Below are positions 9,644-48,617 of a DNA stretch of 64,000 nucleotides, piece after piece. Within the stretch, counting starts at the first letter, position 1. Each line of letters opens with the position of its first letter. Location: contig CAYJHQ010000004.1 in NCBI GenBank assembly GCA_964369775.1, forward strand, positions 15,030 to 79,029, read 5' to 3'. This DNA comes from an uncultured Lachnospiraceae bacterium (GTDB taxonomy: Bacteria > Bacillota > Clostridia > Lachnospirales > Lachnospiraceae). Under the pieces are notes generated by a model, which searched no databases, was not told where the DNA came from, and worked only from the letters and a program-made list of their open reading frames with translations. Position numbers and translations under genes: made by a program.

Positions 9644-9786
9644 AGTTAAAAAGAATCGTTTTTATCCGAGTATTTCTATTGCTATTAGCTGTCGCTTTTC
9701 TAGGAATTGGAATTTATTTAGGTGAATTCAATTCAGTTTTTAATAAATCTATTCGAATTTGCTTAGAATGTATCGGAATCGGGTAA
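9640..9786 (+). CDS. small hydrophobic peptide (48 aa, CLEC motif), translationally coupled
   Basis: ATG overlaps stop of upstream gene (ATGA). Its stop overlaps the next start (TAATG). Single TM helix. Below the track size cutoff. Confidence 0.35.
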   Translation: MKLKRIVFIRVFLLLLAVAFLGIGIYLGEFNSVFNKSIRICLECIGIG

Positions 9787-27195: not shown

Positions 27196-27969
27196 TTAAC
27201 AATTTCTGGAACTGAGTTCCAATTTTTGATGATTGGATAGCCTTGCTCTTCCGATTTTGCAATATTTCTCTTCTTTTTCTATCCCAATCCATCTTCTGTT
27301 TAAATTTTCTGCTCCTAAGCAAGTCGTAAAGCTTCCTGCTGTGTTATCTAGCACCAAATCACCTTCATTGCTATAGGTCTTAATTAGATATTCTATTAAG
27401 GCAAGTGGTTTCTGGGTAGGGTGAAAGGAATATCTTTGTGTATCTGTGGAAAAAATTTGAATACTTTTGGGATATCGTTTAGTTGAACAATATTCGTGAT
27501 CTCGACTATTTTTTCCGTATACCTCCGTATTAGATTCCTTTTTCTTCTTTGATTTCTTTAATGCGTGACCACTTGTCATCTGAGGATTATAGGTTGGTTG
27601 CTTCCTATAAAAGACGCTGATCAACTCATGATTTCTCATAGGTTGGCGCTTTGCATTGAAATAACCTACACCTTTCACTTTGTCCCAAACCCAGTCGTAT
27701 TTATAGTTTTTAATATTACTTGCCCTCAATGTACTAGAAAATGGCTCCGTTCCAAACAAAACAATAGCCCCATTTTTTTTCACGACTCTATTGTACTGCT
27801 CCCACAAAGGCTCGAACGGTATCACTGTATCCCATTTACACTTCGTGATTCCGTAAGGCAAGTCACAAAGCACCATATCGACACTGTTATCTTCTATCCC
27901 ATTCATAACTTCCAGGCAGTCTCCTTGATAGATGCTGCCAAGCTCCGTGCTGTAATAACTATCTTGCAT
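27196..27969 (-). CDS. orphan DNA methyltransferase (beta-class N6-adenine/N4-cytosine; motif IV DLPY before motif I)
   Basis: Reverse complement of 28035..27196 translates to ...SVDMVLCDLPYG...DNTAGSFTTCLGAENLNRRWIGIE. The track labels this ORF + but only the minus strand gives this reading (CAT at 28033-28035, TTA at 27196-27198). AAGGA RBS before MQDSYY at 27969. Confidence 0.75.
   Translation of the reverse strand: MQDSYYSTELGSIYQGDCLEVMNGIEDNSVDMVLCDLPYGITKCKWDTVIPFEPLWEQYNRVVKKNGAIVLFGTEPFSSTLRASNIKNYKYDWVWDKVKGVGYFNAKRQPMRNHELISVFYRKQPTYNPQMTSGHALKKSKKKKESNTEVYGKNSRDHEYCSTKRYPKSIQIFSTDTQRYSFHPTQKPLALIEYLIKTYSNEGDLVLDNTAGSFTTCLGAENLNRRWIGIEKEEKYCKIGRARLSNHQKLELSSRNC
27208..27220. promoter_or_regulatory. 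element palindrome copy 3
   Basis: GGAACTGAGTTCC. Confidence 0.6.
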
Positions 27970-28000
27970 ATTTTTCATCCTTTTATTTTTAATATGCAAA
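27970..28000 (-). promoter_or_regulatory. representative cassette leader (class B): CATATTAAAAATAAAAGGA
   Basis: Shared by methyltransferase (27969), 22932..23180, 25155..25961. Similar TTAATATG boxes at 32820, 41660, 48513, 51008, 55927, 57938, 60058, 63348 (plus-strand coordinates). Confidence 0.45.
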
Positions 28001-28027
28001 AAGCAAGGCTTGAACCTCGCTTTGTAC

Positions 28028-28216
28028 CTACACATACCCCTTCAATCTCAAATATTGTTTTGTCTTTAGCTCTTCTTTTTCACGAATCGCTAGCTTTGCT
28101 TCTGCCGTTTTGTACGCAACAGCCAACACGCTCTCTGGTAGCGCTTTCACTACTTCTTCTGGTGATGCTGATCCAATCGCCACGCCTAGTCGCTCTTTCA
28201 AACCTTCTTTACTCAT
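28028..28216 (-). CDS. hypothetical small protein, paralogous to the N-terminus of 28311..28952
   Basis: KERLGVAIGSASPEEVVKALPESVLAVAYK aligns with RCRLESATAGSTVEEIARAMPQAMAAAVYK. AAGGGGG RBS. Confidence 0.45.
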   Translation of the reverse strand: MSKEGLKERLGVAIGSASPEEVVKALPESVLAVAYKTAEAKLAIREKEELKTKQYLRLKGYV

Positions 28217-33362: not shown

Positions 33363-34172
33363 TTATATTAGATAATCCTTTGCTCCTCCCGAATTGGCGA
33401 TAATGGCAACCGTTAAGTTTACAATAGCCTCCCCAATATCAGACCTTACCTTAAATTCTCGCACAAACACCTCTTTTTCCATTATTGGTAGTGATTTTTC
33501 TATAGCATCCACCTCCACAATAAACTCCTCCGATGGAATCGTGCCATTTTTAACACCTCTCCATTTGTTTGCGATTTCATCCGGTAGTCGCATTGACCCC
33601 TCAATAGACTTCCCTGCTAGAACAGCCTGGACTAGATAATGAAGACGAAGCACTTTAACACTTGCCTTTCGCATCTTAATGTCATCAATCCCCTTGCTTT
33701 GCATGGATCTTACCTGCCTTAAATTAGCCTCACAGTCTTTAATCATCCCTTTTAGAAGTCTCTCCTGGTCGATTTTTTCGAACTGAAGACCTTGAGTGCT
33801 TCCTAGCTCCCGCATAGCGTTGCCATACATATTGATTATGAGCGGATTTTTTAGTGCAAATACCACCTCTAGCGCGTTGTGCGAAGACTTTAACAGTTGT
33901 TTCGAAAATGATACAATATCCTTCACCATTATTGATCCGTGCTTGTATTTAACCTCTTTCGATATATGCCCCTGGTAAATTGCCTCTGAGAGCGTAAGTC
34001 CCACCACTGCATAGACATCGTAATCCGAATCTTCGGTGTCTAGGTTGTAGTTTTGAGAGCCGTACAGTACAGCAAAGTATATTGGTCTGTCGCGACCCAC
34101 AGCTCCTTTTACATCCTCTATTATTTCAGTTCTGATTGAATCTTTCAATTTTCTCACCTCTCTTTTGCTCAT
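33363..34172 (-). CDS. nucleotidyltransferase-fold protein (GS...DxD)
   Basis: YGSQNYNLDTEDSDYDVYAV minimal NTase motif. No RBS at the ATG; TTG at 34148 has GAGAGGTGA. 15-mer motif in its promoter. Confidence 0.5.
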   Translation of the reverse strand: MSKREVRKLKDSIRTEIIEDVKGAVGRDRPIYFAVLYGSQNYNLDTEDSDYDVYAVVGLTLSEAIYQGHISKEVKYKHGSIMVKDIVSFSKQLLKSSHNALEVVFALKNPLIINMYGNAMRELGSTQGLQFEKIDQERLLKGMIKDCEANLRQVRSMQSKGIDDIKMRKASVKVLRLHYLVQAVLAGKSIEGSMRLPDEIANKWRGVKNGTIPSEEFIVEVDAIEKSLPIMEKEVFVREFKVRSDIGEAIVNLTVAIIANSGGAKDYLI

Positions 34173-34213
34173 TTTTAGTTTTATCTATTGTAATACGCAA
34201 GAGAAGAAGTCGT

Positions 34214-34228
34214 ATTTTTGCACGGAAG
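34214..34228. promoter_or_regulatory. second conserved motif CTTCCGTGCAAAAAT (minus-strand sense), copy at nucleotidyltransferase promoter
   Basis: Identical or near-identical 15-mers also at 22875-22887, 24585-24600 (variant), 51361-51375, 54882-54896, 60992-61006, 63409-63423. At 51361 it abuts an extended -10 TGATATAAT. Confidence 0.5.
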
Positions 34229-34305
34229 TTTTGACAACCAGGTACCAATCCCTTAGTTTTTAATGTACAAAAAAAAGAGAGCCTAAGCTCTCTTGTAATG
34301 AAAAA

Positions 34306-35241
34306 TTAATAAGTCAACTTGAAGTCATTTGCCTCTATAACATCAAGTAAAAGCTCTTGGTATCTCCAAAGCTCGTTATAAGCATATGTTTCTACATATG
34401 AAACGCCTTGCTCTAAATCAAGATCCCCAATTCTAACTCCGTGGAACTTAATGATGTTTAGCAATGTAGTGTAAGCTCCTCGACCCTTAAAAGCATCTCT
34501 CCATTCCTGACTCTTTGTTGTCGCGTCTGGCAAAATCACCATAACTTTGGTAAAGTTTTTGATTGACAGAATCAACTCTAAATAATCAGTGCTTTCGCAA
34601 CATCTTGTTGCGCGCAACACATTTTTCATAGGCGCTAGTACTTCTGCCTCAAATGCAGTGAAGTTGTCATAGTATGTTGTCCAGCTTGTTTTTGTTGTTA
34701 CGGCCACTCCCTTAAAAGGCTTTACCGCTTTTCTTCTCTTGCTTGTCTTTGCCTTTTCAACCGCATCAGAATGCTCAGAAGTAGCCTTTCTCATTTCATG
34801 CTTGAACCATCTCTCCGCTCTATAAATTGTGTCAGCCATTGTGTTGACTAGCACGTCACTAGTGAAGAATCTTGAAAGTGACTTGAATGAGTTATCTCTC
34901 TCTAGCTTCATGCGGTATAGACGCTCAAACTCATCCTTCATCATGCTAAACTGATAAGAATGGCTGTAATTTTTACGCACACTTTCACTCCATCCATTTT
35001 CTAACATCTGGAATGTCTTAGCAGTAATAAATCTACCATCCGTTTTGCGATTAAACACATATCCTCTGTCAATAATCGCTTTTTGAACTCTTGCATCGCT
35101 CTCTGATAAAGTGTAGTCAACTCCATTCATTTGAACTGTCACGCTTGATCCACTTGGTACGTTTGATAGGTCAACACAAAAATGCTTCGATGTGTCCACT
35201 CCTGCCTTTGATAATTCCTTTGCTCTCATTTCTTTTCTCAT
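34306..35241 (-). CDS. hypothetical protein (311 aa)
   Basis: Conserved leader with AGGAGGAA. Confidence 0.5.
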   Translation of the reverse strand: MRKEMRAKELSKAGVDTSKHFCVDLSNVPSGSSVTVQMNGVDYTLSESDARVQKAIIDRGYVFNRKTDGRFITAKTFQMLENGWSESVRKNYSHSYQFSMMKDEFERLYRMKLERDNSFKSLSRFFTSDVLVNTMADTIYRAERWFKHEMRKATSEHSDAVEKAKTSKRRKAVKPFKGVAVTTKTSWTTYYDNFTAFEAEVLAPMKNVLRATRCCESTDYLELILSIKNFTKVMVILPDATTKSQEWRDAFKGRGAYTTLLNIIKFHGVRIGDLDLEQGVSYVETYAYNELWRYQELLLDVIEANDFKLTY

Positions 35242-35309
35242 TATTAATTCCTCCTAAAATTTGATTTATTTTCAAAAGTAATATGAGGAATTCAGCTTAA
35301 AAGAATTCT

Positions 35310-35322
35310 GGAACTCAGTTCC
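35310..35322. promoter_or_regulatory. element palindrome copy 8
   Basis: TGGAACTCAGTTCCA. Confidence 0.6.
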
Positions 35323-35358
35323 AAAAAAAAGAGAGCCTAAGCTCCCTTAAAAAAATAA

Positions 35359-35793
35359 CTAAACTGTTACCCACTCTTTCAACACCACTAGATCTTCATC
35401 TGGTCCTTTCCAGAACCAATGCTTTTCATTCTTCCACTTCAGGAATCCAGCTAAGGCAGCGCATAATATATATGCCTCTAGCCTCACTCTGGCAACTCCT
35501 CTTTTTTCTCCATGTACCATTTCTTCAAGCGACAGCTCATCGACTGATACTGCAGTAAAGTAAGAATTAATCTCTTTTGCAGATGGCATTGATCGTTTGT
35601 AGTTCGCGTATAGAATCTCCACGTCTTCCCAAGGTGAGGTAGCTATATCCAAATCAATCAACAAGGAATCTTTTTTTGCGACTCCTTTCTCAATCAAGAC
35701 AACCTTTCCCACCTTTAAAGTTTTTTCTTTTAGATCAACAGTAACTTTTTTTCCTTCTTTTGCGGCATTTAATGCCATTTCATATATATTCAT
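35359..35793 (-). CDS. hypothetical protein (144 aa)
   Basis: AAAGGAGA RBS 8 nt before ATG at 35793. Its promoter is unit 1 of the repeat array. Confidence 0.5.
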   Translation of the reverse strand: MNIYEMALNAAKEGKKVTVDLKEKTLKVGKVVLIEKGVAKKDSLLIDLDIATSPWEDVEILYANYKRSMPSAKEINSYFTAVSVDELSLEEMVHGEKRGVARVRLEAYILCAALAGFLKWKNEKHWFWKGPDEDLVVLKEWVTV

Positions 35794-35831
35794 AGTTTTT
35801 GTCTCCTTTCTTTTATCTAAGCTGGCAATAT

Positions 35832-37066
35832 GGCACATTTCTATATTTTAGTCATCGGAGCAGCCCGTGCGATACGGGGTACAGGAGGGTAGTCCTGTAC
35901 CCCGTCCAAACGGGCTGCACAAGTAAAGTAATTGCCCACTTAAATTGTCGCTGTACAACGATTGAGATTGACTTTTGTAAATGACACATTTCTCTAATTT
36001 TCTCATATAGAGGGATGAGGACGAGGCAGGTCCCAGACTGGGAATCTGTGGACCTAGAACATCCTCATCCATCTCTTAAATAATTACCTCTGCCTAATCT
36101 CACACTGTGTAGTGTTTATTGTTTGATAGTGGCGGAAAATACGGCACATTTCTATATTTTAGTCATGCATACCGTCGAAGAGCTGAGGCGTATCCAGATG
36201 GTTCTGGATAATCCTTCGTGAGACGACGGTAATCTAAACACTTTCCCTCCACCCATCTCACTGTGCGGTGAATTTGAAGCAAAATAGTAATTTGGCACAT
36301 TTCTATATTTTGATCATATCGACATCTCTGATGGATTTAATCCAGTAGTGCATACTGGACTAAATCTAGAAAGAGATGTTTAGTAAATAATTACTCATCT
36401 AGCTTCACACTGTGCTGTGTAATGGTAAGCACTCTGCTCTTGCAGTGTCTTTCTTTATCCTCTAGGTTATTTCCGATATAGGCATCTATGATGCTGTTAT
36501 CGGAAATGAGCGCGAAAGGATCCCGGGGGTCAGTATGAGCTCCTGGATCCTTGAGCATTAAGAGTTAAGTGCTCAAATGGGACACACCGTATAATTTCGT
36601 GAAGGTCTGATATTTCAATGCATTTCTATAGTACATTCATATAGATGACGCATGAGCCGTGGCTCCCTGGATGGATCCAGGGCTCCACGATGCAGGCGTC
36701 ATATTGTTAAAGCGAATATTTAACACTTCACTGCTCGCATAAGCAAAAATAATTCAAGGCGATTCATCTAAACGGCACATCTCTATAGTATGTTCATATA
36801 ACGCCCCTTCCTGCCTGCAGGAGCTGGAGAGGTCTCCAGCTAAAGCAGGGAAGAAGGGACGGCATTAAAGATATTTAGCCTTGTCGCCTTTGTCCGTGCT
36901 GACTTTTTTGATTACTCAGTGTTTTTTTTGGGATTTCTATAGTCTGATCATTGGAAGATCAGGGCAGCTTCTGTCCGCCTCCTAGGAGGGAGGGTGATGG
37001 AAGCAGCCCTGATCTGAAATAAATTAAAACACATTGCCAATCATTTGCTTCCCATAGCATAGGCTC
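35832..37066 (-). repeat. tandem array of 7-8 units (about 150-160 bp each): conserved 24-nt box + unique GC-rich perfect hairpin, between the RT gene and the next gene
   Basis: Boxes GGCACATTTCTATATTTTAGTCAT (or variants) at 35832, 35983, 36143, 36294, a degenerate copy near 36456, 36620, 36774, 36930. On the minus strand the boxes read ATGACT-N17-CATATT (promoter-like). CACWGTG heptamers in units 2-4. Unique 8-15-bp-stem hairpins in every unit. Confidence 0.7.
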
Positions 37067-38377
37067 TTAAATTCCTCTCACACAAGCCTCAAATACCGCC
37101 TTGTTAATTGTGATGGCATTATGCAAACAACCAACTGTTAAGTAATTTTTGATCACTTTTTCAGTCAGCTTGCGATTTCTCGCAACATTTGAGCCTTTTC
37201 CTCTAAGGATTGTCGCAGACTCCATATTGTCTACCGTTCCCAACCCTCCTATTTTTGAGATAGAGATTTTCCCTTTCTTACCTTTCATCTCTCGCACCTT
37301 CACCGCGCGAAGACAGTCCATTACAAATAAATTCATTTGCTCAATGTCTTTCTTGCAGTTAATTGTGCTAAGACAACTAGAGCCCCAATTATATTCCCCT
37401 TCGTAGAGAAATTTAATTAGATTTCTTTTTGCTTGCGCCTCTGTTATTCTTGGATTGTTGATTGTGCGATCCACTACAGCTTTTTGGAATTTTTTCACCC
37501 TTCCAGCAGATAGCGTAATCATATCATTCTTAATGCTAAACCCTAAAAATTTAAACCACTTGTCTTTTGTAAGCGCTTCAACCTTTTTAGGATTTAGTGA
37601 CAATCCATACTCAGCTAGTCTCGCTTCTAGAATCTCTTTTGCCTCATCAGCACTCTCCCCTAAAATAAGTAGGTCGTCTGAATAACGGCAATATTCAATT
37701 CCATCCATGTTGCTTAGCTCTTCATCCACATCGTATAAAACAGCGTTAGAAAGGAAACTTGCAACAGCACAACCTTGTTTAAGGCTGCCGTAATGCGTTA
37801 CTAGATTGCCATCTAGGTCAAATAGTAGGTCTGTGTTGTAATACGTTCTTAATATAGCGATTGCTGGATCCGAACCACGCTCTATGCCTAATTCGTCCTC
37901 CATGCGATCAAAAATGCCAAAAATCACGTCTCTGTTTACACTGTCAAAATACTTTGTCAAGTCTGCTTTGTAGCCTAAATTATTGGAACTCAGTTCCGCA
38001 ATCTTTTTCGCCATTGCTTGTACTGTCTTTTGACAGCTTAACCCTTTTTGATACGATGTACAATTTTTATGAACATAATGAGGAAAAAGCTCAAAAAGGC
38101 AATCATTGATTAGCGTTAAAACCAATCGATCCACATCTTCATTCACATGAACTTCTCTAAACTCTCCTGGCTTATCTTTTGGAATTTGGGCTAGGTGAGC
38201 TGGCGCAACCTCGTAATTCTTAGTTACAATCCTTTCGTACAAGTAAGCTCTTGTGCTTGGCTTGCAAAGTTCTTTTAGAACAGCTTGAGGGATCTTTTTT
38301 TCGTCCGCCTTTTCAATCAGTTCTTCCCATCTTTGATGTTCAAACATCATCTGTAACAAGTTTCTCTCGTTATTCAT
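37067..38377 (-). CDS. reverse transcriptase (bacterial non-LTR; retron/UG/DRT-like, unclassified)
   Basis: RT motifs IPKDKPGEFREV (1), ADLTKYFDSV (A), LKQGCAVASFLSN (B'), RYSDDLLILG (C), LSLNPKK...FLGF (D/E). 436 aa. Conserved cassette leader upstream. Confidence 0.8.
   Translation of the reverse strand: MNNERNLLQMMFEHQRWEELIEKADEKKIPQAVLKELCKPSTRAYLYERIVTKNYEVAPAHLAQIPKDKPGEFREVHVNEDVDRLVLTLINDCLFELFPHYVHKNCTSYQKGLSCQKTVQAMAKKIAELSSNNLGYKADLTKYFDSVNRDVIFGIFDRMEDELGIERGSDPAIAILRTYYNTDLLFDLDGNLVTHYGSLKQGCAVASFLSNAVLYDVDEELSNMDGIEYCRYSDDLLILGESADEAKEILEARLAEYGLSLNPKKVEALTKDKWFKFLGFSIKNDMITLSAGRVKKFQKAVVDRTINNPRITEAQAKRNLIKFLYEGEYNWGSSCLSTINCKKDIEQMNLFVMDCLRAVKVREMKGKKGKISISKIGGLGTVDNMESATILRGKGSNVARNRKLTEKVIKNYLTVGCLHNAITINKAVFEACVRGI
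37985..37997. promoter_or_regulatory. element palindrome copy 9 (inside RT coding sequence)
   Basis: TTGGAACTCAGTTCCG within 37067..38377. Confidence 0.5.
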
Positions 38378-38470
38378 TTTTCAATCCTCCTAAAGATTTA
38401 TTTTCAAGAATAATATGGAAAATTGTAAAAAAAAAGAGCAAAGCCTCAGCCTCGCTCAAAATGAATCAAT

Positions 38471-38581
38471 TTAAACACCTAGTATCTTGCTCCAGTGGAC
38501 AAACTCCCCTCTGTAAAGAACCAACCCCTTTGCAGCCTCCGTAGTAGCGTTAAACACCATCGCGTCCATTAATTTTCTCAT
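38471..38581 (-). CDS. small protein (36 aa) upstream of RT with its own duplicated leader
   Basis: ATG with AAAGATTTAGGAGGATTG leader nearly identical to the RT leader. Terminator GAGCGAGGCTGAGGCTTTGCTC + T-run. Confidence 0.35.
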   Translation of the reverse strand: MRKLMDAMVFNATTEAAKGLVLYRGEFVHWSKILGV

Positions 38582-38638
38582 CATTCAATCCTCCTAAAGA
38601 TTTATTTTCAAGAACAATATGGAGGATTTTCAGGAAAA

Positions 38639-38651
38639 GGAACTGAGTTCC
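38639..38651. promoter_or_regulatory. element palindrome copy 10
   Basis: GGAACTGAGTTCC upstream of small ORF/RT. Confidence 0.6.
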
Positions 38652-38701
38652 CGAGATCAAAGGCCTTTATAGGGACAAAAAAAAGAGAGCGTGAGCTCTC
38701 T

Positions 38702-39745
38702 CTAGTTAAAACATTCTAGTGCGTCAAAGTGAATTTCTTTTAGTGAGTCCTTTCCATTTTGATAAATCTCGATTATGCCAATGTCCGATTTGTCGTAGCT
38801 CATACAAGCGCCTTCAACTCTATCTTTTATCTGCTTTTCAAAGTAATCAATTACTGCATTAATTTTTTCCGTTGTATCGCAATGAATAGCAACGTTCATG
38901 ATGGATGCCTCTGTGAGTGCTGACCCATACATGTGCTCATCCAATATTTGAATTGTAATGAATGCAGACTCTCCATCCTTTTCAACTGCATATGCTCGAG
39001 AGATGCTATCAAGAATCACTCCCTGATTATTCGCAAACCCGTCAAGAAAGATGGGGGCCGTATTCCCTTTTGGTCTGTTGTATCCCAAGGCGCCTATCGC
39101 AGAAACCACATCTAATGCCAACATGGAACTCAGTTCCAAAAGTCGCAAATTTGTGATTGCGCATACTTTCATCCCATGCTCATCTCCTATTTGTATATAA
39201 GCCTTAACATGGTAGTCTTTTCTTAACACTCGCTCAACTTTACCTACCCTTAGAACAGCTGTTGGTGATGTATCGCGAAGCAATTTGTTATACTTTGTCT
39301 GCAAGTCCACGAAGGCTGACTGCATTTGCACAATTTGTTTTGGTGTATAGCCTGTTGCTTGATACTCCTTGAGCAAATCAAGGGATTCCCCTCTCGATAG
39401 AGCTAATTTAAGCTCCGTTTTTTGAGACTGCGTAAGCTCAACCTCTATATCATAATCATCTCCATACACATCTCCATTATGATATGTGATGAACATTACA
39501 GCATCCTCTCCCTCATAAGAGGCAAATAAACTAATATGATCACCAGACTCATTCGTGCTCAATCCAAATACCTCATCTGGATTAAAATTTACTGATATTT
39601 GCCATACAGTTGCAAGGTCAAGCTCTTCTGGGTCATGTATAAGTAATGACGTAACACTAAGTGAATCAATCATTCTTACAGATCTCACCTTTCTTTCAAA
39701 AATACTTTCTCGACTACACTTTTTTAAATGTTCTTTTGTTTTCAT
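38702..39745 (-). CDS. hypothetical protein (347 aa)
   Basis: Conserved leader AGGAGGAAGAAAGA. Contains an internal copy of the palindrome. Confidence 0.5.
   Translation of the reverse strand: MKTKEHLKKCSRESIFERKVRSVRMIDSLSVTSLLIHDPEELDLATVWQISVNFNPDEVFGLSTNESGDHISLFASYEGEDAVMFITYHNGDVYGDDYDIEVELTQSQKTELKLALSRGESLDLLKEYQATGYTPKQIVQMQSAFVDLQTKYNKLLRDTSPTAVLRVGKVERVLRKDYHVKAYIQIGDEHGMKVCAITNLRLLELSSMLALDVVSAIGALGYNRPKGNTAPIFLDGFANNQGVILDSISRAYAVEKDGESAFITIQILDEHMYGSALTEASIMNVAIHCDTTEKINAVIDYFEKQIKDRVEGACMSYDKSDIGIIEIYQNGKDSLKEIHFDALECFN
39125..39137. promoter_or_regulatory. element palindrome copy 11 (inside CDS 38702..39745)
   Basis: TGGAACTCAGTTCCA within coding sequence. Confidence 0.5.
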
Positions 39746-39823
39746 TCTTTCTTCCTCCTAAGATTTTTTATTCACTAAAAATATGACAAATAGCCCCCAA
39801 AAAAAAGAAGAGGTTTCCCTCTT

Positions 39824-40162
39824 CTATGCGTATCTTATGAGCGCCACCTTTAGCACCCCAACTGCCAATAGGCAAGCGCTAAAAATCGCAATTGTTTGTA
39901 TAAAGAGAACCGCAACGTCATCAACCTTGTGCGCCGCTGGATCAACAAAGAACGCTAATTGAATCATCACCATTGCAACAATGATCACCGCAATTGCAAA
40001 TACAATTCCAAGCAACCCCATTGCAATTTTTGCATCCTCTTTCTTTTGCTCTAGTAACACCCACCATAAAGCAAACATCACAGCCACAAGCAATGCAATA
40101 GCCACTCCTATATTATCCACGACCTCTGTTAGCGCCGCTCCATTATCTACAAATATTCTCAT
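39824..40162 (-). CDS. small membrane protein (112 aa)
   Basis: Three TM helices. Confidence 0.45.
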   Translation of the reverse strand: MRIFVDNGAALTEVVDNIGVAIALLVAVMFALWWVLLEQKKEDAKIAMGLLGIVFAIAVIIVAMVMIQLAFFVDPAAHKVDDVAVLFIQTIAIFSACLLAVGVLKVALIRYA

Positions 40163-40248: not shown

Positions 40249-41643
40249 CTATTCTTTGCAGCACGATATTTCAGAGTTTCTCAAAAGCTCTTTCATATCT
40301 CCAGCATTTACAGGTTTTGAAAAACAATAACCCTGTGCAGTGTCGCATCCTAATTGCTGTAGCAGCGAGACGTGATCATAAGTCTCGACGCCCTCACAAA
40401 CAACCTTAAAACCTAATCCTTTCGCCATGCGAACTACATTATCAATGATAATAACCCCATCACGCACCTCTTTTTCTGTTGATCCGCTTAAAAACTTCTT
40501 ATCTAGTTTCAAGGTATCAACGTCAAATTGCGTTAGCCGATTCAGCGAAGAATACTCTGCGCCAAAATCATCAATTGCGATTCCAAACCCCATCTCTTTT
40601 AAAACACGGATTTTTTCATTGACGCCCACGCCTTCTTGCAAAGCCCCCTCGGTTAGCTCTAGCTCAATACGCGATGGTGAGACAAAGTAGCGATATGTTA
40701 TATCTCTAACCCTTGTCACGAAATCATCATCTAGTAGTGTTGCTGATGATATATTAGTAGATATCACTGGTATATGAAAAGTTTTGAAGTTTTTGCTGAT
40801 AAACTTGCATACTTCTTCAAAGACGTACAAATCTAAATCGACAATATAATTCGTTTTCTCAAAAACAGGAATAAACATGTCTGGATAAAGCATTTGGCTT
40901 CCATCCTTGGGAATCCAACGAACCAAGGCTTCAATTCCGCACATTTTCAATGTAATCAAATCTATTTTAGGTTGATACCACGCCTCAAACTCATTATCCT
41001 CAAATCCTTTTTTGGCTCGAAATATCACCTCTTCGGCTAAATCTGTCGCTGCTCTCATCGCCTCGTCAAATTCATACAGCGTGATTTTGCAAACCTCGGC
41101 ACCTTTTTCTTTGGCGAGATCTGCATTTTCCATAGCATCTGCAACATCTACTCCCTTTTCTATCTCACAAGCACCGACTGAAAAGCTAAAATCAAAAGAC
41201 TCATCTAGCACCTTTCGCAGGCGAGGAATTATTTTCTCCAACTCCACCTTCATATCTACTTTTCGCTTTTTGCTATTTAAAACATAAAATCGCTCACCAG
41301 TAGCCTTTGCAATAAGAGCCTTTGTTGATCCAAAAATCTCCGAAAGACCATTAGCCGTCTCAATAACTACTACATCGCCCTTCTCCTCTCCATATCTCTT
41401 TACAATCGCCCTCATGCGATCAATATCAATAGAGAGCAGTTCGTACTCCCCCTCGCCCGCTGAATTGATTTTTCTTTCCACAAGCTCCTTAAAGTACCCT
41501 GTCGAGATTAGCCCTGTAATCGCATCCCTCTGCATAATACTCAACTCATCCTCTTTTAATCGACCTTTTCGTTTTCGATATGCATACCATGCACACAGCA
41601 CCAATATAAGCGCCACAACCAATAAATAATACATCCAACACAC
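40249..41643 (-). CDS. membrane-anchored GGDEF(degenerate)-EAL protein (c-di-GMP phosphodiesterase-like)
   Basis: N-terminal TM, then EAL signature ...GIEALVRW..., DDFG..., EGVE. GTG or ATG start. Confidence 0.65.
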   Translation of the reverse strand: MCWMYYLLVVALILVLCAWYAYRKRKGRLKEDELSIMQRDAITGLISTGYFKELVERKINSAGEGEYELLSIDIDRMRAIVKRYGEEKGDVVVIETANGLSEIFGSTKALIAKATGERFYVLNSKKRKVDMKVELEKIIPRLRKVLDESFDFSFSVGACEIEKGVDVADAMENADLAKEKGAEVCKITLYEFDEAMRAATDLAEEVIFRAKKGFEDNEFEAWYQPKIDLITLKMCGIEALVRWIPKDGSQMLYPDMFIPVFEKTNYIVDLDLYVFEEVCKFISKNFKTFHIPVISTNISSATLLDDDFVTRVRDITYRYFVSPSRIELELTEGALQEGVGVNEKIRVLKEMGFGIAIDDFGAEYSSLNRLTQFDVDTLKLDKKFLSGSTEKEVRDGVIIIDNVVRMAKGLGFKVVCEGVETYDHVSLLQQLGCDTAQGYCFSKPVNAGDMKELLRNSEISCCKE

Positions 41644-41724: not shown

Positions 41725-42675
41725 CTATGAAACCTTTTGCTCTTCCTCGTCAAAGTCAAATAACCTCTGAATCGGAACGTATTGTTCGATTACTGGCAAC
41801 ACTTCCTTCACCGCTTTATACGCAGCTGTAAACACTGATGGAGTCTTTAAATCCTTATTCATCCCCTTCCACGCACTATAATGATCTTTGAAGTGTATTT
41901 TTCTTGTCTCAATCACGTCAACGCCAAGTGCGTAAGTTAGAATAATTCCAAAGATGTCCGCCTCCGACTCTTTTTTGTACAGATTTTGCTCCATCCTATG
42001 ATTCATCACAGCATGACCAATCTCATGAGTAAGAGTAGAGACGCAAGACGCTCCTTTGTACAGCTTATTTACTGACAACTCCTTTGTGTAGTTATTGCAA
42101 GTGCCCCGAAGCCCAAATCCGTGATCCGACTCGGTATCTGTGTCATAACCTAATTCCTCCGACACATACTCAATCAATCCCTCGATAATAGGTGTAATGC
42201 GATCATCATCCTCTCCTAAAAAGAATGCTTGTGGGTAGCTCTCTCTCGGATAGTTGGTTTGACTGATATCAAATACATTGCCCGTTTTGAAAGCCATCAC
42301 AGATGTTGTATTCAGTTCTCCATCCTTAGCTCTTTGGCGCTCTTCCTTTGTAGCCGTGCTATATGGTTTCTTCTCTCCATCTACATCAATAACCATAAAT
42401 GGAGCTGGAACAAGGATCTTAATACCTTTCTCTCCCTTGTTTACTGAATAGCCCTTTTCTTTCCAAAAATTAAATGAGCCCACACATCGCGCACCTCTAC
42501 ACTGCGATTCAATAAGTTCGAAGTTTCTATCGCTATAGCTATCACAAAACATACTGATAAACTTCAAGCGCTCTATGCTGTTTTCCAAATCTTCTTCAAA
42601 CACCTCGCATTGCTTCACAAGCTGCTTCACAGCATCTTTTCTCGCCTCGTAATCCACTTTCTTTTTTGATTTCAT
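41725..42675 (-). CDS. ArdC-like antirestriction/zincin metallopeptidase-domain protein (HExxH)
   Basis: C-terminal LTHEIGHAVMNH HExxH motif, N-terminal basic ssDNA-binding-like region. Length about 316 aa, like ArdC. Confidence 0.5.
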   Translation of the reverse strand: MKSKKKVDYEARKDAVKQLVKQCEVFEEDLENSIERLKFISMFCDSYSDRNFELIESQCRGARCVGSFNFWKEKGYSVNKGEKGIKILVPAPFMVIDVDGEKKPYSTATKEERQRAKDGELNTTSVMAFKTGNVFDISQTNYPRESYPQAFFLGEDDDRITPIIEGLIEYVSEELGYDTDTESDHGFGLRGTCNNYTKELSVNKLYKGASCVSTLTHEIGHAVMNHRMEQNLYKKESEADIFGIILTYALGVDVIETRKIHFKDHYSAWKGMNKDLKTPSVFTAAYKAVKEVLPVIEQYVPIQRLFDFDEEEQKVS

Positions 42676-44807: not shown

Positions 44808-47800
44808 TTAAACCCTCTTTATCTTCAAAATAAATCCTGCGACAAATAATAATAAGGTCATTATTGCAATGTATAAGTAAATAGGGCTTGAATCACTTGT
44901 TTGCAATGCTTCAATCATGCCTGCCTCTTCTACTGATTCATCTTTGACATCCTCTTCTGTTGAATCCTCTGTTGAGTTCTCGCCAGCATCCCCGTCAGGT
45001 ATTTCTCCCTCTGGTGCTGTTGGAACCTCATCTGTCTCTTCGCCTGTCTCTTCATCCGGTACCTCTCCCTCTGGACCTGTCGGCGCTTCTACCTCTGGAA
45101 TATCTCCTACCTGATGCTCATTATCTCCAAGCTCTGGTAGCGTTGGATCCCCCTCATTTGGCTCTTCTGGATCTGTCGGCTCTGTCGGAATCTCACCTAC
45201 TTGATGCTCGTTGTCTCCCATCTCTGGCAATGTTGCCTCATCATAGAATGAAACAACTGCAGTAGCTTCTGCTAAAAGATCTACGTCTGAATTGATTGGA
45301 TCTTTCGCTACAACAGCAGCAACACTTTCGTAAATGCCTGTTTCTAACTGTGTGTACTCGTAAGTAATTGTTACAACCTCACCCCCCAAAAGCCCTTTAG
45401 TTAAGACAAGGCTTTCATTCAATTCAAACTCCACTATCTCGCCTGTTGACGATGTAAGCTTTAAGTTCTTGGCTATTGCAAATGTCGCACCTGACACCAT
45501 TACAGAATTAAGAGCTCTCGGACTCTTGTTTTCAATTGCGATTGTGTATTTTACAACACCTCCAACCTTCATTTCTGCCACATCACTAGTCATTGTCATA
45601 TCAACCCTTGATGCCTCTAGTGAATGGAATACAACCGTTGTCTCTGCTGAATCTGTCAGCTCCTTACTTGGAATATATGGGTTTTTCGCTGTAACAGTCG
45701 CCGCTGTAGTTACTGCTTGAGGCGTCTTGCTTGTTGCGTCAAACGAAATTAACGCCTTAGCCCCCGCTTTAATCTCCTGCTCTATTACGACTGTGCTTCC
45801 GTTTAATGTGAACGCAACCTCTTCCCCATCTACTAAAACTTTTAGATTTGTTGCCGTTTTAAATAAATCATCTAAAACCTCTACACCTTCTAATGCTACA
45901 TCGTTTGGATTTTCAACTATCGTCTGATACTCCACAATTTCATTCACAGTGGCTTCTGTCTTATTTGAACTCTTCTTAATTTCAATAATTGGCTCATCAA
46001 CAAAGTTTATTGTTGCTTTTCCATTCGCTTTTGCGCTTACTGTTCCAAATTTGGCAGCAACATCCACTGTATTTTCGTAAGACCCTGCTGTATCTTGAGT
46101 ATAGTCATAAGTGATTGTAACCCTCTTTTCAATATCAGTTAGACTCATATTCTCTCCATCCAATGAATAATTTGCACCATTAACAACAATGTTTGTCGCT
46201 TTTATGAATGCTTGATCTGACACAGTCATGGAGTGAGCATTGAATAAATTTTCATCCAAAATCTCAATCTCAAATGTTGCATTTTCTCCCACTAACACTG
46301 TCTCTTGTTTTGCAATCTTTGATACAGCAATTACAGGATCCACAAATGCTACGCGAGTGCTCGCTTCATCAGAAAGCATAATCCCATCAACTGTAGGGTG
46401 TGGCGCCTCTACTTTAACAGCATTTACAAACTCTCCTGCTTCGGATTGTTCGTGGTCATAATTGATTGTAACAACCTCTCTCGCTAAAAGACTATCTAGC
46501 GTAAGATTACCCTCAGTATCTGTTGAAAATGGAACGATGCCTCGCTCTGTTGAGTTTAACGACACCCCATCTAATTTAAAAGGAATTGTGTCGTCTACAA
46601 AAACGCTAGAAATCTCAACATCGCTATGATTCTCAACTGTTACTGTATATCCAACAGGCGAACCACTCATTGCTTCCTTCACACTTGCCTCTTTATCCAC
46701 CGTGATTGCGATATCATCATGAAATATAGTTGTAACATCGCCCATTTCAATCAGTGTTAAGCTGTCATTATTTGGATCTAACACCTCTGCTTGTGTTGCA
46801 CTCACAAACTCTCCTGCCTTATCGTGTGCGTATTTGTAAGTGATCACTGCCGCTTCTCCCATCAAGATTGAAGGTATTGTAAAAGCATTCCCTTCTACTG
46901 TAACATCTATCTCTTCCCCATTCACTAACACGACCATATCAGCCGCATTTGGAAAAGCCTTGTCTGTAACTAAAACATCTGCTAAGTCAAACCCGCCATC
47001 ATTTGTTATCGTTACTGTATATGACGCCTCATCGCCAAGCATGTATGCATCTTTTTCTGCCGTCTTTTTCACTGTAAATGATGCTGGCTTTACAAATTCT
47101 ACATCTACCGAATCTGTTCCTGCCAATTCACTGCCTTTTACAAGTGGATTTGTAGCCGCTACGCTAGCAGTGTTGGTAAATACACCTAAATCTTTTTGCG
47201 TGTATTTGTAAGTAACTGTAGCGTACCCACTTGCCTCTATAGGTTCATGGAGTGTGATTGTATCGTGAATTACTGATGAATGCCATCCACCACACGCAAA
47301 AACGCCTGCCATTACTTGCTCTCTAATATGCTCCTCTGCAAAGCCAGTAATATCAGCTCCGCATCCATTACAAAGCTGCACATTTCTACCTCTTTTGTGA
47401 GTGATGTACTCGCCCTCTGCATCTTCAACAACTGCTGTAATATCAGCACTAGCTAAAACAGGATCAGAAATCACCACTTCGTCAATATCAGTAGCGCTCT
47501 CATTCGTTACTTTTATTGTATAAGTAACATCACTTCCCGCAGGCAAAGACTCTTTATTAGATGTCTTTTGAACTGTCATTATCGCATCTGGCAAAACAGT
47601 CACTCTAGCCTCAGAGTCTTCCATCAACGGCTCGTGCTTATCTAAGTATGTAGCGGAAACCTCAATCGTATTTGCTATAACGCTTGTCACTTCAGCATCG
47701 CTTGGGATTGTGTAATCATAATTGATTGTAATTACATCACCAGGATTGACAACCTCTGTAATTACAAGGTCGCGTCCGATTATTTCATATAATATGCCCT

Positions 47801-48359
47801 CAGTCCCGTTTGATACAACTAGATTTTCCACCGTATCAAAATCAATAAGAGTATCAGCAACAACTGTGTTTGAATACTCTGCCTTTCCAGCATTTGTTAT
47901 CACCACCTCATAAGTAACCACTTCACCTCTATAAGCTTCTGGCTTTACAATTTTTGCAACTTCAAGGCCTGGTGTTATTTCTTTCCAATGCCCAAATATT
48001 AATTCGTCTGAAGTTACCGCTTGCGTAAAATCAAAATGATCCTCCGGTTGTTCGATTGGCTGCTCTAACAAAGACCACCCTTCAAAATAGAAAGTCTTTT
48101 CATTGACTTCTACAATATCGCCAGTGCTATAATTTGGCGTTGTTGGAACTCCTGGCTCTGCCAACTCTTCCGCTGGCTGCTCTGTTATATTGTGACCCTC
48201 TGGAAGTCCTAAATGCTCATATTGTATTGTTATACTAGTCGTTGTACTTCTCATGCTCGCCTCTACCAACGAGCCTCCAATACCCGCTGACAAAACTGTG
48301 GCCACAGCTAAGGCACACGCAGTGCCCTTTTTAAAAATTGTCTTTATTCTATTTTTCAT
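44808..48359 (-). CDS. large surface adhesin with DUF11-type repeat domains, acidic LPE(L/M)GDNEHQVG(E/D)IP repeats and C-terminal sorting-signal-like tail
   Basis: Signal peptide, repeated TYT..V.N.G domains. C-terminus ...ALQTSDSSPIYLYIAIMTLLLFVAGFILKIKRV (motif + TM + basic tail). Confidence 0.75.
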   Translation of the reverse strand: MKNRIKTIFKKGTACALAVATVLSAGIGGSLVEASMRSTTTSITIQYEHLGLPEGHNITEQPAEELAEPGVPTTPNYSTGDIVEVNEKTFYFEGWSLLEQPIEQPEDHFDFTQAVTSDELIFGHWKEITPGLEVAKIVKPEAYRGEVVTYEVVITNAGKAEYSNTVVADTLIDFDTVENLVVSNGTEGILYEIIGRDLVITEVVNPGDVITINYDYTIPSDAEVTSVIANTIEVSATYLDKHEPLMEDSEARVTVLPDAIMTVQKTSNKESLPAGSDVTYTIKVTNESATDIDEVVISDPVLASADITAVVEDAEGEYITHKRGRNVQLCNGCGADITGFAEEHIREQVMAGVFACGGWHSSVIHDTITLHEPIEASGYATVTYKYTQKDLGVFTNTASVAATNPLVKGSELAGTDSVDVEFVKPASFTVKKTAEKDAYMLGDEASYTVTITNDGGFDLADVLVTDKAFPNAADMVVLVNGEEIDVTVEGNAFTIPSILMGEAAVITYKYAHDKAGEFVSATQAEVLDPNNDSLTLIEMGDVTTIFHDDIAITVDKEASVKEAMSGSPVGYTVTVENHSDVEISSVFVDDTIPFKLDGVSLNSTERGIVPFSTDTEGNLTLDSLLAREVVTINYDHEQSEAGEFVNAVKVEAPHPTVDGIMLSDEASTRVAFVDPVIAVSKIAKQETVLVGENATFEIEILDENLFNAHSMTVSDQAFIKATNIVVNGANYSLDGENMSLTDIEKRVTITYDYTQDTAGSYENTVDVAAKFGTVSAKANGKATINFVDEPIIEIKKSSNKTEATVNEIVEYQTIVENPNDVALEGVEVLDDLFKTATNLKVLVDGEEVAFTLNGSTVVIEQEIKAGAKALISFDATSKTPQAVTTAATVTAKNPYIPSKELTDSAETTVVFHSLEASRVDMTMTSDVAEMKVGGVVKYTIAIENKSPRALNSVMVSGATFAIAKNLKLTSSTGEIVEFELNESLVLTKGLLGGEVVTITYEYTQLETGIYESVAAVVAKDPINSDVDLLAEATAVVSFYDEATLPEMGDNEHQVGEIPTEPTDPEEPNEGDPTLPELGDNEHQVGDIPEVEAPTGPEGEVPDEETGEETDEVPTAPEGEIPDGDAGENSTEDSTEEDVKDESVEEAGMIEALQTSDSSPIYLYIAIMTLLLFVAGFILKIKRV

Positions 48360-48617
48360 TTTCTTTCCTTTTCTTGTAGCGAACTGTACACATCCGCTAC
48401 TTGATTAATCATTTTCAAGTGTCTGTTTGTGAACGTTCGAAAGCCTTACCCCGAATCCTTATATGATGTTTCCTTTTTCATCCATTTCCCTCTTTTCTGT
48501 ATTTGTCTTTAATATGTTGAAATTCACAGTGCAAAGGGAATATTTTCATAGTGTAGTTTTTTTAGAAGCTGTACAACCATTGAACGACAAAAAAGAGAGC
48601 TCTCGCCCTCTTTCTTA

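Follow-up and report, generated by a model that had tools for sequence, protein, structure and literature searches.

A divergent UG27 reverse transcriptase module with a conserved array of box-and-hairpin units on an integrative element of a Firmicute

The array of short boxes and long hairpins that follows a reverse transcriptase (RT) gene in the 64-kb stretch of DNA analyzed here (hereafter, the window) is a conserved, strand-specific and covarying part of the UG27 RT module, shown to recur in more than 100 loci. The RT encoded at this locus belongs to the known UG27 (Class 2 UG/Abi) family as a divergent member, and the module is carried by an integrative mobile element of a Firmicute. On balance, and with moderate confidence, we favor the explanation that the array is co-transcribed with its neighbors as a multi-unit template RNA serving the RT. 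The initial annotation gained support for its reading of the region as an array of several noncoding RNAs or templates serving the RT, given the conservation and covariation over these loci, and lost it for the promoter assigned to each box; its two other readings, that is, promoter-decoy or empty-cassette remnants and DNA-level hairpin sites for a recombinase, found no support.

The UG27 gene module and its carrier

All features of the module lie on the minus strand, and coordinates are those of the window. The RT gene (37067-38377) encodes a UG27-class enzyme of 436 amino acids with an intact YSDD motif, as judged by PADLOC, Pfam, a homologue search and a family alignment. The length and motifs originally read from the sequence agree with the open reading frame, with a Pfam RVT_1 match (E=1.6e-22) and with the family alignment, in which the IPKD..G..R, FDSV, QG and YSDD positions are invariant. 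Profile classification, proposed at the outset as a check, assigned the protein to UG27 and not to the retron or group II intron RTs: the PADLOC profile RT_UG27 matched with E=5.4e-159 (RT residues 5-434 over profile positions 3-418 of 420), and the second-best profile was UG26 with E=1.2e-36. The locus has the UG27 profile match, the partners RTas346 and RTas337 on the same strand and a gap filled with stem-loops, three marks of a UG27 system. Homologues numbered 4,420 at E<=1e-30 in a set of 5.8 billion proteins, the nearest being 63% identical, and no DNA relative of the locus was found in the phage and plasmid collections.

Other systems were considered and rejected. The NCBIfam retron model St85 scored 69.9 bits (E=2e-19) against a cut-off of 235, the Ec107-like PADLOC profile reached only 3e-13 versus 5e-159 for UG27, and Rfam gave no match to a retron RNA family. 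The NCBIfam group II intron RT/maturase model gave 97 bits against a cut-off of 300, and no Rfam group II intron matched within 34000-40000, even at E<=1. A DGR would be expected, in the terms of the initial annotation, to come with VR-like near-copies; elsewhere in the window the best match to any array segment was a 16-nt piece of the box, and Pfam and PADLOC profile searches matched no Avd-like accessory. As for a CRISPR array, the repeats are degenerate 24-nt boxes with about 130 nt of structured sequence between them, and a PADLOC scan of the RT and four neighboring proteins identified no cas genes. The RT also matches CRISPR-associated RT profiles through its RT domain, far more weakly than UG27.

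The published partners of UG27 RTs are RTas346 and RTas337, with an ncRNA of three stem-loops predicted in the RT-to-346 gap (Mestre 2022, NAR, PMC9226505). In the window, the genes keep the published order, here as RT, array of eight noncoding units, RTas346, terminator and RTas337. RTas346 (cluster 346; 35359-35793; PADLOC E=5.8e-38) is a protein of 144 amino acids without a known fold; the PADLOC match region spans 35359-35838, and the true start is the ATG at 35793, which gives a product equal to P0125. RTas337 (cluster 337; 34306-35241; PADLOC E=5.1e-40), of 311 amino acids, is likewise without a known fold, has no PDB relative and yielded an AF2 model of low confidence, and no usable structure or fold match was obtained for either partner. 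A natural RT-RTas346 fusion in locus L040 supports cooperation between these two proteins. Intrinsic terminators follow RTas346 (35329-35348) and RTas337 (34275-34294) and are near-identical, the former being the first site of this kind after the candidate RT promoter. A candidate sigma-70-like promoter for the RT operon (TTTACA-18-GAAAAT; 38400-38429), proposed from a consensus scan match, sits inside a leader of about 40 nt, a copy of which lies further upstream, before a 36-aa ORF; both this ORF and the duplicated leader had been described before and are present. No terminator was called by the consensus scan between RT and RTas346, and RT, array and RTas346 probably form one sense transcript.

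The carrier encodes an integrase, PHROG matches, an anti-restriction-like gene, an orphan DNA methylase and adhesins, with a type IA topoisomerase gene nearby on the element. The 64-kb window yielded no terminase, portal or capsid gene, and the element looks more like an integrative island than a recognizable phage. UG27 is among the most abundant RT families of human-gut phages, with 1,447 dereplicated genomes counted by Mestre 2022, and is carried by phages and other mobile elements and not enriched in defense islands (PMC9226505).

Boxes and hairpins in the window

Between the RT stop (37067) and the RTas346 ATG (35793) lie 1,273 nt without a conserved gene, in keeping with the noncoding stretch of about 1.2 kb first noted. 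The pattern ATGANNNNANTATAGARATG, allowing one mismatch, has seven matches, all on the minus strand (35836-35855, 35987-36006, 36147-36166, 36298-36317, 36621-36640, 36778-36797 and 36932-36951); with up to two mismatches there are 11 in the 64-kb window, where shuffles predict about 1 and not one in 100 gave as many. The boxes start 151, 160, 151, 323, 157 and 154 nt apart, and the 323-nt interval contains a degenerate eighth unit with a short hairpin and a box remnant, so that the seven to eight head-to-tail units of the initial annotation resolve into seven clear boxes and one degenerate box at a spacing of 151-160 nt. Eight unit-specific hairpins each stop 4 nt before a box; against dinucleotide shuffles, seven have z between -5.3 and -7.7 and the degenerate unit has -2.3. 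Since the hairpins are mutually unrelated in sequence and Tandem Repeats Finder reported no repeat in the array, only the boxes repeat, as had been claimed. The description of the hairpins as strikingly GC-rich was overstated: the array kilobase has 43% GC versus about 38-40% around it, and individual units range from 33 to 53%. The first hairpin of the array has no box upstream and the last box no hairpin downstream, so that a unit could run from hairpin to box or from box to hairpin. Units 1 and 4 are degenerate, and both strands of the window hairpins fold about equally well.

In the window, a family covariance model, R2, built mostly from Bacteroidota-phage units, picks up six of the eight units, with E from 2e-6 to 5e-4 and every match on the minus strand. 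Nearest the RT, unit 1 combines a hairpin at 36956-37015 (inverted repeat I3; MFE -38.7 kcal/mol, z = -6.5) with the box variant ATGATCAGACTATAGAAATCCC at 36928-36951, which has one mismatch and lacks GTGCC; the family model recognizes its hairpin only. In the linker after this box, a small stem-loop read from the sequence (GTC-AGCACG-GAC; 36892-36903) has the loop type of the family-wide small stem-loop. Unit 2 has its hairpin at 36802-36861 (I1; MFE -43.1 kcal/mol, z = -7.1; R2 E=2.7e-5) and the matching box ATGAACATACTATAGAGATGTGCC at 36774-36797, and unit 3 follows with a hairpin at 36645-36702 (I2; z = -5.9; R2 E=4.9e-4) and the matching box ATGAATGTACTATAGAAATGC at 36617-36640. The short, degenerate hairpin of unit 4 (36516-36552; I7; z = -2.3) precedes a box remnant, GATAACAGCATCATAGATGCC, read from the sequence at 36481-36501; with filters off, R2 matches weakly at 36440-36505 (E=0.017). 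The hairpin of unit 5 (36322-36379; z = -7.7; R2 E=9e-6) is followed by the matching box ATGATCAAAATATAGAAATGTGCC (36294-36317), that of unit 6 (36170-36231; z = -5.3; R2 E=3.6e-5) by the matching box ATGACTAAAATATAGAAATGTGCC (36143-36166), and that of unit 7 (36009-36076; I4; z = -7.4; R2 E=4e-6) by ATGAGAAAATTAGAGAAATGTGTC (35983-36006), with one mismatch. Unit 8, with a hairpin at 35860-35918 (I8; MFE -46.8 kcal/mol, z = -7.6; R2 E=2e-6), ends in a box at 35832-35855, 38 nt upstream of the RTas346 start codon. The three CACWGTG motifs of the initial annotation were found at 36405-36419 (ACAC-AGCACA-GTGT), 36256-36270 (TCAC-CGCACA-GTGA) and 36100-36114 (CACT-ACAC-AGTG), all under D5, and are the stems of the small conserved stem-loop.

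Conservation, covariation and evolutionary rates across the family

In 113 distinct loci with the order RT>346>337, the RT-to-346 gap contains 391 boxes, another 45 follow RTas337 directly and 5 occur elsewhere, which places 436 of the 441 in the first two positions. Loci carry 1 to about 13 units, with a median box period of 172 nt across loci and a gap of 29 to 2,247 nt; extra units stand behind RTas337 in 40 of the 113 loci, and the cultured Bacteroides phage BS-TP1 has an array of 8 boxes. The box is on the RT strand in 537 of 538 matches, and its orientation stays tied to the RT gene where gene order is rearranged (L059, L062 and L063). The family box consensus, ATCR-N6-TAAAG-N2-ATGTGCC, is strand-specific and single-stranded and is common to Bacteroidota and Firmicutes elements, the window box being a local variant, ATGA-N6-TATAGAAATGTGCC. 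The whole unit, of about 155 nt, is made up of the box, a small GCAC-type stem-loop (in several units), an A/T-rich motif and a long three-tier hairpin that is almost fully Watson-Crick, conserved at its base and different at its apex in every unit.

Standard pairs occupy 91.9% of 3,171 aligned pair cells, where shuffling gives 48% and sliding the partners 30-39%, and each of the 28 base pairs of the hairpin varies on both sides; in the small linker stem-loop, the loop sequence is conserved and the stem covaries. In IMG/VR, 61 exact matches to the box consensus occur; about 84 would be expected by chance, as estimated from the information content of the pattern with IMG/VR taken as ~9e10 bases. 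Thirty of the matches have a strong upstream hairpin, and 29 of these adjoin UG27 module genes, the 30th (L200) being a short fragment of L030, a contig with a known module; the remaining 31 have neither hairpin nor module. In this collection, an exact box with a hairpin was therefore found only inside UG27 modules.

The initial annotation took the last box for a sigma-70 promoter (ATGACT-N17-CATATT) and likened the ACTATAGA core to SP6/T7-type promoters. If boxes were promoters, used by a host sigma factor or an element polymerase, each would drive an independent small unit ending at the next hairpin, and the RNAs would not be RT templates. Such a reading, which we consider very unlikely, draws on the position of the last box close before the 346 gene (38 nt from the start codon here, about 60 nt in the relatives inspected), on some Firmicute relatives in which the box TAGAAA is followed 18 nt downstream by TATATT, resembling -35/-10 elements, and on the SP6-core-like ACTATAGA of units 1-3. 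On the other hand, the array boxes were not called as promoters by a sigma-70 consensus scan; ACTATAGA is a local variant of the family-wide TAAAG, which is not TATAG and is common to elements of Bacteroidota and Firmicutes, groups whose promoter consensus sequences differ; the boxes are essentially confined to the UG27 module (436/441) and not spread over the elements; a terminator scan revealed no T-run after the array hairpins; and there is no RNA polymerase among the annotated large ORFs of the window.

The proximity of the last box to the RTas346 start codon, together with the constant location of the array between RT and RTas346 and the lack of a terminator between them, would also suit a long structured leader that tunes the translation or stability of RTas346/337 relative to RT by RNase processing or attenuation, with no template role. 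This reading leaves unexplained (i) a unit number of 1 to about 13, with apices that stay paired in spite of their hypervariability, (ii) the extra units behind RTas337 in 40/113 loci and (iii) the sequence-specific tripartite box conserved across phyla, and we regard it as the least probable of those weighed here.

Rates were compared in 20 related phages and prophages. Box and linker are 0.93 identical and RT four-fold sites 0.77, while hairpin apices are 0.58 identical, versus 0.42 for unrelated apices, and keep their pairing. Boxes and linkers are thus under purifying selection, and the hairpin apices are shown to turn over faster than silent sites while staying paired, which bears out the repeat-spacer logic first perceived in the array. 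Apex changes are compensatory in both arms and not adenine-specific, and residual wobble pairs slightly favor the antisense, that is, cDNA sense (174 vs 113, p=0.0014). Fast apices with kept pairing, alongside conserved boxes and linkers, point to an arms-race payload, and the apex rates, the nearly all-Watson-Crick stems and the wobble bias support a template or payload role of the apex.

The wobble asymmetry could instead mean that the functional form is an antisense RNA or the DNA itself. In the latter case the hairpins, each with its conserved flanking box, would act as cruciform or single-strand sites in recombination, packaging or the priming of replication, much like integron attC sites or single-strand initiation sites, with the RT as no more than a neighbor. 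Stems with about 92% Watson-Crick pairs and little G-U pairing, the similar folding of both strands in the window, the slight preference of wobble pairs for the noncoding strand and a variable center on a conserved base, as in integron attC sites, are all compatible with this; against it, the conserved module contains no recombinase, primase or Rep and its partners are always RT, RTas346 and RTas337, orientation is fixed to the RT gene in 537/538 matches, including the rearranged L059, L062 and L063, and a linker stem-loop with conserved loop and covarying stem is typical of RNA. We therefore judge a DNA-level role to be quite unlikely.

A template array and its relation to known systems

In the favored explanation of a template array, which takes the retron msr/msd and the DRT ncRNAs as its model, the RT, probably with RTas346, would bind each unit by its constant handles, namely box, small stem-loop and hairpin base, and the variable hairpin would be the template, copied by the RT to a hairpin-forming single-stranded cDNA. 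The element would consequently carry a small library of different hairpin RNAs and cDNAs. Speculatively, these products may act in element-host conflict, for instance as anti-defense decoys or inhibitors, which would explain the diversification of the apices; this anti-defense role is suggested by gene context, by a proposal of Mestre 2022 and by the hypervariability. A further, tentative and rather unlikely reading is that of an RT-copied library of hairpin cassettes whose apices are specificity determinants, such as decoys or inhibitors directed at nucleic-acid-sensing or -cutting proteins of the host, and are diversified by a directed process, perhaps RT-mediated write-back, snap-back copying or cassette swapping. 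Directed diversification would account for joint change in the two arms at a rate above that of silent sites.

The earlier remark that tandem sets of different ncRNAs are not known from any RT system has been overtaken by the prediction in PMC9226505 and by a preprint of September 2026 (10.64898/2026.09.22.753630) that mentions UG27 ncRNA arrays and whose term counts are 74 for 'UG27', 10 for 'ncRNA array', 24 for 'cDNA', 2 for 'cDNA hairpin', 1 for 'diversif' and 0 for 'hypervariable'. In the literature we found no published UG27 function or mechanism and no sign of the contrast in rate between box/linker and apex, as far as the preprint can be judged by its term counts. The unit grammar of tripartite box, GCAC-loop stem-loop and three-tier hairpin is common to a deeply divergent Firmicute member and Bacteroidota phages, which pins down the essential parts. 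If the units are RT templates, the module would be an example of natural multiplexing, with many templates for a single RT, a design that engineered retron arrays imitate (PMC10370050). The array of phage BS-TP1 and the L040 fusion, the latter for the protein complex, offer experimental handles.

With the UG27 systems of gut phages, the locus shares the RT family, clusters 346 and 337, the gene order, the long stem-loops in a noncoding RT-346 gap and, apparently, a mobile element of a gut-type Firmicute as its carrier. It differs in an RT at most 63% identical to any protein in the 5.8-billion set, in the box variant ATGA...TATAGAAATGTGCC and in an island-like carrier rather than a recognizable phage. 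Where Mestre 2022 described one ncRNA with three stem-loops, the array observed here is periodic, its box conserved and its hairpin apices hypervariable. As in retron msr-msd, the RT gene adjoins its own structured ncRNA, with a conserved recognition part (here box and small stem-loop) and a long hairpin whose upper part can vary and serves as the cDNA template in retrons; unlike in retrons, the UG27 RT gene precedes its ncRNA, which can reach about 13 tandem copies, the effector genes are other ones, and no a1/a2 repeats or branching G were identified at the array. DRT2 (UG2) and DRT9 (UG28) are also Class 2 UG/Abi RTs without extra domains, relying on a neighboring structured ncRNA as template, but theirs is a single ncRNA upstream of the RT, in host defense systems of defense islands, whereas UG27 has many different units.

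Two further likenesses are of logic only. DGRs share hypervariability physically linked to an RT, and differ in that here there is no TR/VR pair or hairpin near-copy elsewhere in the window and changes are not adenine-specific. CRISPR shares a constant short repeat alternating with variable segments and a unit number that varies among relatives, and differs in that the UG27 'spacers' are structured hairpins of ~130 nt, not protospacer copies, and that the RT and the four neighboring proteins scanned include no cas gene. Should the reading as a library of hairpin cassettes be true, UG27 would stand beside DGRs and CRISPR as a third RT- or repeat-linked variability system.

Reverse transcriptase and array in the window

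The reverse transcriptase (RT) is encoded by a 436-aa ORF (37067-38377, minus strand) with a full RVT_1 domain. It contains the palm motifs quoted in the initial annotation, which do not vary across a family alignment of 21 sequences. The next real gene, also on the minus strand, begins at 35793 and encodes a 144-aa product identical to a database protein (P0125); the 1,273 nt between the two genes hold no conserved ORF. Profile classification, proposed earlier as a check, placed the RT over its full length in PADLOC RT_UG27 (E=5e-159), and the two downstream genes match RTas346 (E=6e-38) and RTas337 (E=5e-40), the protein profiles that define UG27. UG27 belongs to the Class 2 UG/Abi RTs and was reported from 1,447 dereplicated genomes of human-gut phages with hosts in Bacteroidota and Firmicutes; it is always accompanied by protein clusters 346 and 337, shows no enrichment in defence islands, and has in its RT-to-346 intergenic region a "putative conserved ncRNA with three long stem-loops" (PMC9226505, Mestre et al. 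2022). The locus is an example of this already known RT system, and we identify it with high confidence as a UG27 ncRNA array.

The array itself, as first described from the RT, its boxes and its hairpins, proved real. The box pattern ATGANNNNANTATAGARATG has seven matches with at most one mismatch, all on the minus strand and inside the RT-to-346 gap, and at up to two mismatches it has 11 matches in the 64-kb window against about one expected, a number reached by none of 100 shuffles. The window box reads ATGA-N6-TATAGAAATGTGCC, and start-to-start spacings are 151, 160, 151, 323, 157 and 154 nt, with a decayed eighth unit inside the 323-nt interval. A different long imperfect hairpin lies 4 nt upstream of each box, and seven of the eight hairpins fold 5.3 to 7.7 SD better than dinucleotide shuffles; they are GC-rich as stated in the initial annotation, but more mildly so. 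Since Tandem Repeats Finder reported no repeats, only the boxes repeat. A lone box-like sequence, AAAAATATAGAAATGTGTC (6355-6379, minus strand), lies outside the mobile element with no hairpin, scores E=1.3 with the covariance model described below, and is probably due to chance.

Membership of the group II introns, retrons, DGRs or CRISPR systems was rejected, each failing a defining test; for a DGR-type TR/VR pair, copies of the hairpins are absent elsewhere in the window. An Rfam search gave no real match, a DNA similarity search against plasmids and phages gave no match, and a tRNA scan found nothing.

Distribution of the units among UG27 relatives

A single-sequence search of IMG/VR with the window RT returned nothing, and a profile search was needed to recover relatives. 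We collected 80 IMG/VR loci, five metagenome loci that are the closest relatives (60-63% identity), two GenBank phage records, including the cultured Bacteroides phage BS-TP1, and 80 genome loci, mostly prophages of Segatella, Alistipes, Bacteroides, Phocaeicola, Blautia and Ruminococcus. An iterated box HMM gave 538 matches, 537 of them on the RT strand, with the tripartite family consensus ATCR-N6-TAAAG-N2-ATGTGCC. In the 113 distinct loci with the order RT, RTas346, RTas337, the RT-to-346 gap holds 391 boxes, 45 more directly follow RTas337 and five are elsewhere; median box spacing is 172 nt (IQR 162-181) and the gap measures 29-2,247 nt, or roughly 0-13 units. BS-TP1 (PQ571274) has a 1,349-nt gap with eight boxes about 170 nt apart, its array spanning 80,614-81,962.

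The covariance search suggested in the initial annotation succeeded in other UG27 loci: a model seeded with one orthologous hairpin family and rebuilt from 147 matches found 426 units in 88 sources. Among the best 300 of these, nearly all are on the RT strand, and the few on the opposite strand overlap palindromic hairpins. The model recovers six of the eight window units (E=2e-6 to 5e-4), units 1 and 4, numbered from the RT side, being degenerate. In the 147-unit alignment, which is fitted to the model, standard pairs occupy 91.9% of pair cells versus 48% with shuffled and 30-39% with slid partners, and all 28 pairs include double-sided changes.

Arrays without an RT, which had been named earlier as a sign that the association was not specific, did not appear: in a scan of IMG/VR with the exact box consensus, hairpin-bearing matches occur only at UG27 modules. 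The scan gave 61 matches, with about 84 expected by chance as estimated from the information content of the pattern and a database of about 9e10 bases. In 30 of them the upstream sequence forms a strong hairpin (MFE of the 90-nt segment at or below -33 kcal/mol), and UG27 module genes adjoin 29 of the 30; the last, L200, is a fragment of a contig that had already been found to contain the module. Hairpin and module are both absent from the remaining 31. A metagenome scan for the window-type box gave seven matches, all at chance level and with no module genes in the flanking sequence available; only one, on a 1.5-kb fragment, has a stable upstream fold.

The layout of the module varies. One to four further hairpin-box units follow RTas337 in 40 of the 113 loci (for example L006 8044-8324, L004 8050-8339, L035 8196-8782 and L086 8057-8340), and the module is therefore often RT-array-346-337-array; in the window, this position holds only a terminator. 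A few loci have 346 and 337 ahead of the RT; units there stand before 346 and also after the RT. Homing-endonuclease and methylase genes are inserted between RT and array in relatives: between RT and RTas346, the closest Firmicute relatives carry HNH endonuclease genes (L083 7018-7849) and a DNA methylase gene (L084 5824-6828), and L086 has a GIY-YIG (SegE-like) gene downstream of its module (9233-10189). The module tolerates insertions that part the RT from its array or partner genes.

Transcription and element context

The initial annotation had read the last box as a -35/-10 promoter, had taken this to suggest a promoter in every unit, and had seen a loose likeness to SP6/T7-type promoters in some units. 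Neither reading is supported: a sigma-70 consensus scan does not call the boxes, and ACTATAGA, the SP6-like sequence, is a local form of the family's TAAAG. The same box occurs in elements of two phyla and does not recur elsewhere on those elements. Promoter grammar differs between the two phyla. The hairpins were likewise rejected as intrinsic terminators, no T-run following any of them, and in a scan of the RT region terminator-like sites are confined to positions upstream of the RT leader, behind RTas346 and behind RTas337. The simplest reading is thus one sense transcript spanning RT, array and 346, suggested by (i) boxes not called as promoters, (ii) the lack of T-runs, (iii) the placement of the terminators and (iv) the fixed orientation of the units.

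Near-identical intrinsic terminators (AAGRGAGCTTAGGCTCTCTT followed by a T-run) lie at 35329-35348, after RTas346, and at 34275-34294, after RTas337, and a similar one at 38682-38703 follows the gene upstream of the RT. A leader of about 40 nt (tccatattRttcttgaaaataaatctttaggaggattgaa) is duplicated at about 38596-38640 and 38379-38423; one copy precedes a 36/37-aa ORF (38471-38584) with a terminator of its own at its end (38436-38457), the other precedes the RT, and both are putative promoters.

The surrounding element encodes an integrase, an orphan N6/N4 DNA methylase (27196-28035, minus strand), an anti-restriction-like protein (phrog_7245; 41725-42675, minus strand), a GGDEF-EAL protein (40249-41643, minus strand) and two large DUF11/SpaA-type surface proteins, or adhesins (44808-50975, minus strand); no phage structural genes were recognized in the window, and by its gene content the cargo looks more like that of an ICE or island than of a typical phage. 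A 13-nt palindrome, GGAACTSAGTTCC, has 23 copies against 0.04 expected, all between 21529 and 61120 and to the right of the integrase gene (for example 35310-35322, 37985-37997, 38639-38651 and 39125-39137). The copies inspected in the RT region are intergenic except for one within the RT gene, and the gene for a type IA topoisomerase is located just beyond the stretch that the palindromes span. The palindrome resembles an operator or terminator-like motif used across the element and may mark how far the mobile element extends.

Unit evolution, partner proteins and proposed mechanism

The 254 hairpins compared fall into 91 sequence families; hairpins within one array are unrelated, and orthologous hairpins are shared between related phages. 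In orthologous alignments, stem base and box are nearly invariant, and the apex, the variable upper part, is replaced yet paired, with exact compensatory transversions in both arms. Mean pairwise identity in a 10-genome alignment is 0.9-0.99 in the RT 3' end, boxes and linkers and falls to 0.35-0.6 at each apex. Among 20 related phages and prophages, it is 0.93 for box plus linker, 0.77 for four-fold degenerate sites of the RT and 0.58 for apices, whose automatically called boundaries are noisy; apices of non-orthologous units give 0.42, the random expectation, and apex identity does not follow RT divergence. From this ranking around the four-fold sites, we infer that boxes and linkers are under purifying selection and that apices turn over faster than silent sites, in the one suitable lineage, silent sites being saturated in two other phage groups (four-fold identity 0.38-0.43).

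Stems are almost purely Watson-Crick. The few wobble-compatible positions favor the antisense strand (174 versus 113 with one representative per family, p=0.0014; 342 versus 198 over 199 non-identical hairpin segments), which would be consistent with a need for the cDNA strand to fold as well; in the window hairpins, both strands fold about equally well. A universal hairpin motif or restriction-site enrichment was rejected, k-mer enrichment being only modest (CCAG/CTGG and GAAGGC, in 15-20% of families). An apical module, CGTCGTAT...ATACGACG, recurs in two hairpin families that come from different phages and are not related in other respects (unit 3 of L061/L065/L067/L077/L080, and L002 6500-6610 / L082 6165-6278), which hints that apical modules may be swapped between units.

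RTas346 and RTas337 have no relatives in Pfam, NCBIfam or PDB (PDB sequence searches being empty or insignificant) and only three to four homologues each by word index. AF2 models from shallow alignments are of low confidence (pLDDT 57 for RTas337 and 48 for RTas346), and one Foldseek search of PDB with such a model gave nothing below E=0.2. A natural fusion (L040 962-2578) joins a UG27 RT (residues 5-434) to the C-terminal two-thirds of RTas346 (450-537) and is followed by two hairpin-box units and then RTas337; the fused coding sequence argues that RT and RTas346 work together.

We lean slightly towards a mechanism in which the array would be transcribed together as composite RNAs, constant unit parts would recruit the RT, probably together with RTas346, and the RT would copy the variable hairpins into hairpin cDNAs. 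An anti-defence or conflict function is a guess, and a doubtful one. A prediction of the intergenic RNA element dates from 2022, and a preprint of 24 September 2026 (bioRxiv 10.64898/2026.09.22.753630) apparently characterized it as an "ncRNA array". The full-text term counts of the preprint ("UG27" 74, "UG27 ncRNA" 11, "ncRNA array" 10, "hairpin" 33, "cDNA" 24, "cDNA hairpin" 2, "hypervariable" 0, "diversif" 1) indicate that the array idea is very probably already described there. The present analysis contributes the unit grammar shared by the family, accounts for the CACWGTG motifs, rejects the promoter reading, adds the RT-346 fusion, and contrasts the rates of conserved handles with those of hypervariable apices.

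The linker of about 60 nt is more than a passive spacer. Several elements recur in it among non-orthologous units: a TGAG motif, a small stem-loop whose loop reads A[AG][CT][AG]C[AG] (mostly AGCACA or AGCACG), a CAAGG motif and, immediately 5' of the big hairpin, an A/T-rich motif. Stems of 4 bp or more close the loop in 118 of the 398 distinct units, versus five in shuffles, and they begin with 51 different four-base sequences; the structure was found by targeted search, RNAalifold on MAFFT-aligned linkers having returned none owing to misalignment. The three CACWGTG "heptamer palindromes" of the initial annotation are present, but they are stems of this small stem-loop (ACAC-AGCACA-GTGT, TCAC-CGCACA-GTGA and CACT-ACAC-AGTG); another, GTC-AGCACG-GAC, follows box 1 (36892-36903). 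By its linker and hairpin anatomy, each UG27 unit therefore resembles a retron ncRNA in layout, a conserved recognition part being followed by a long hairpin with a variable upper part.
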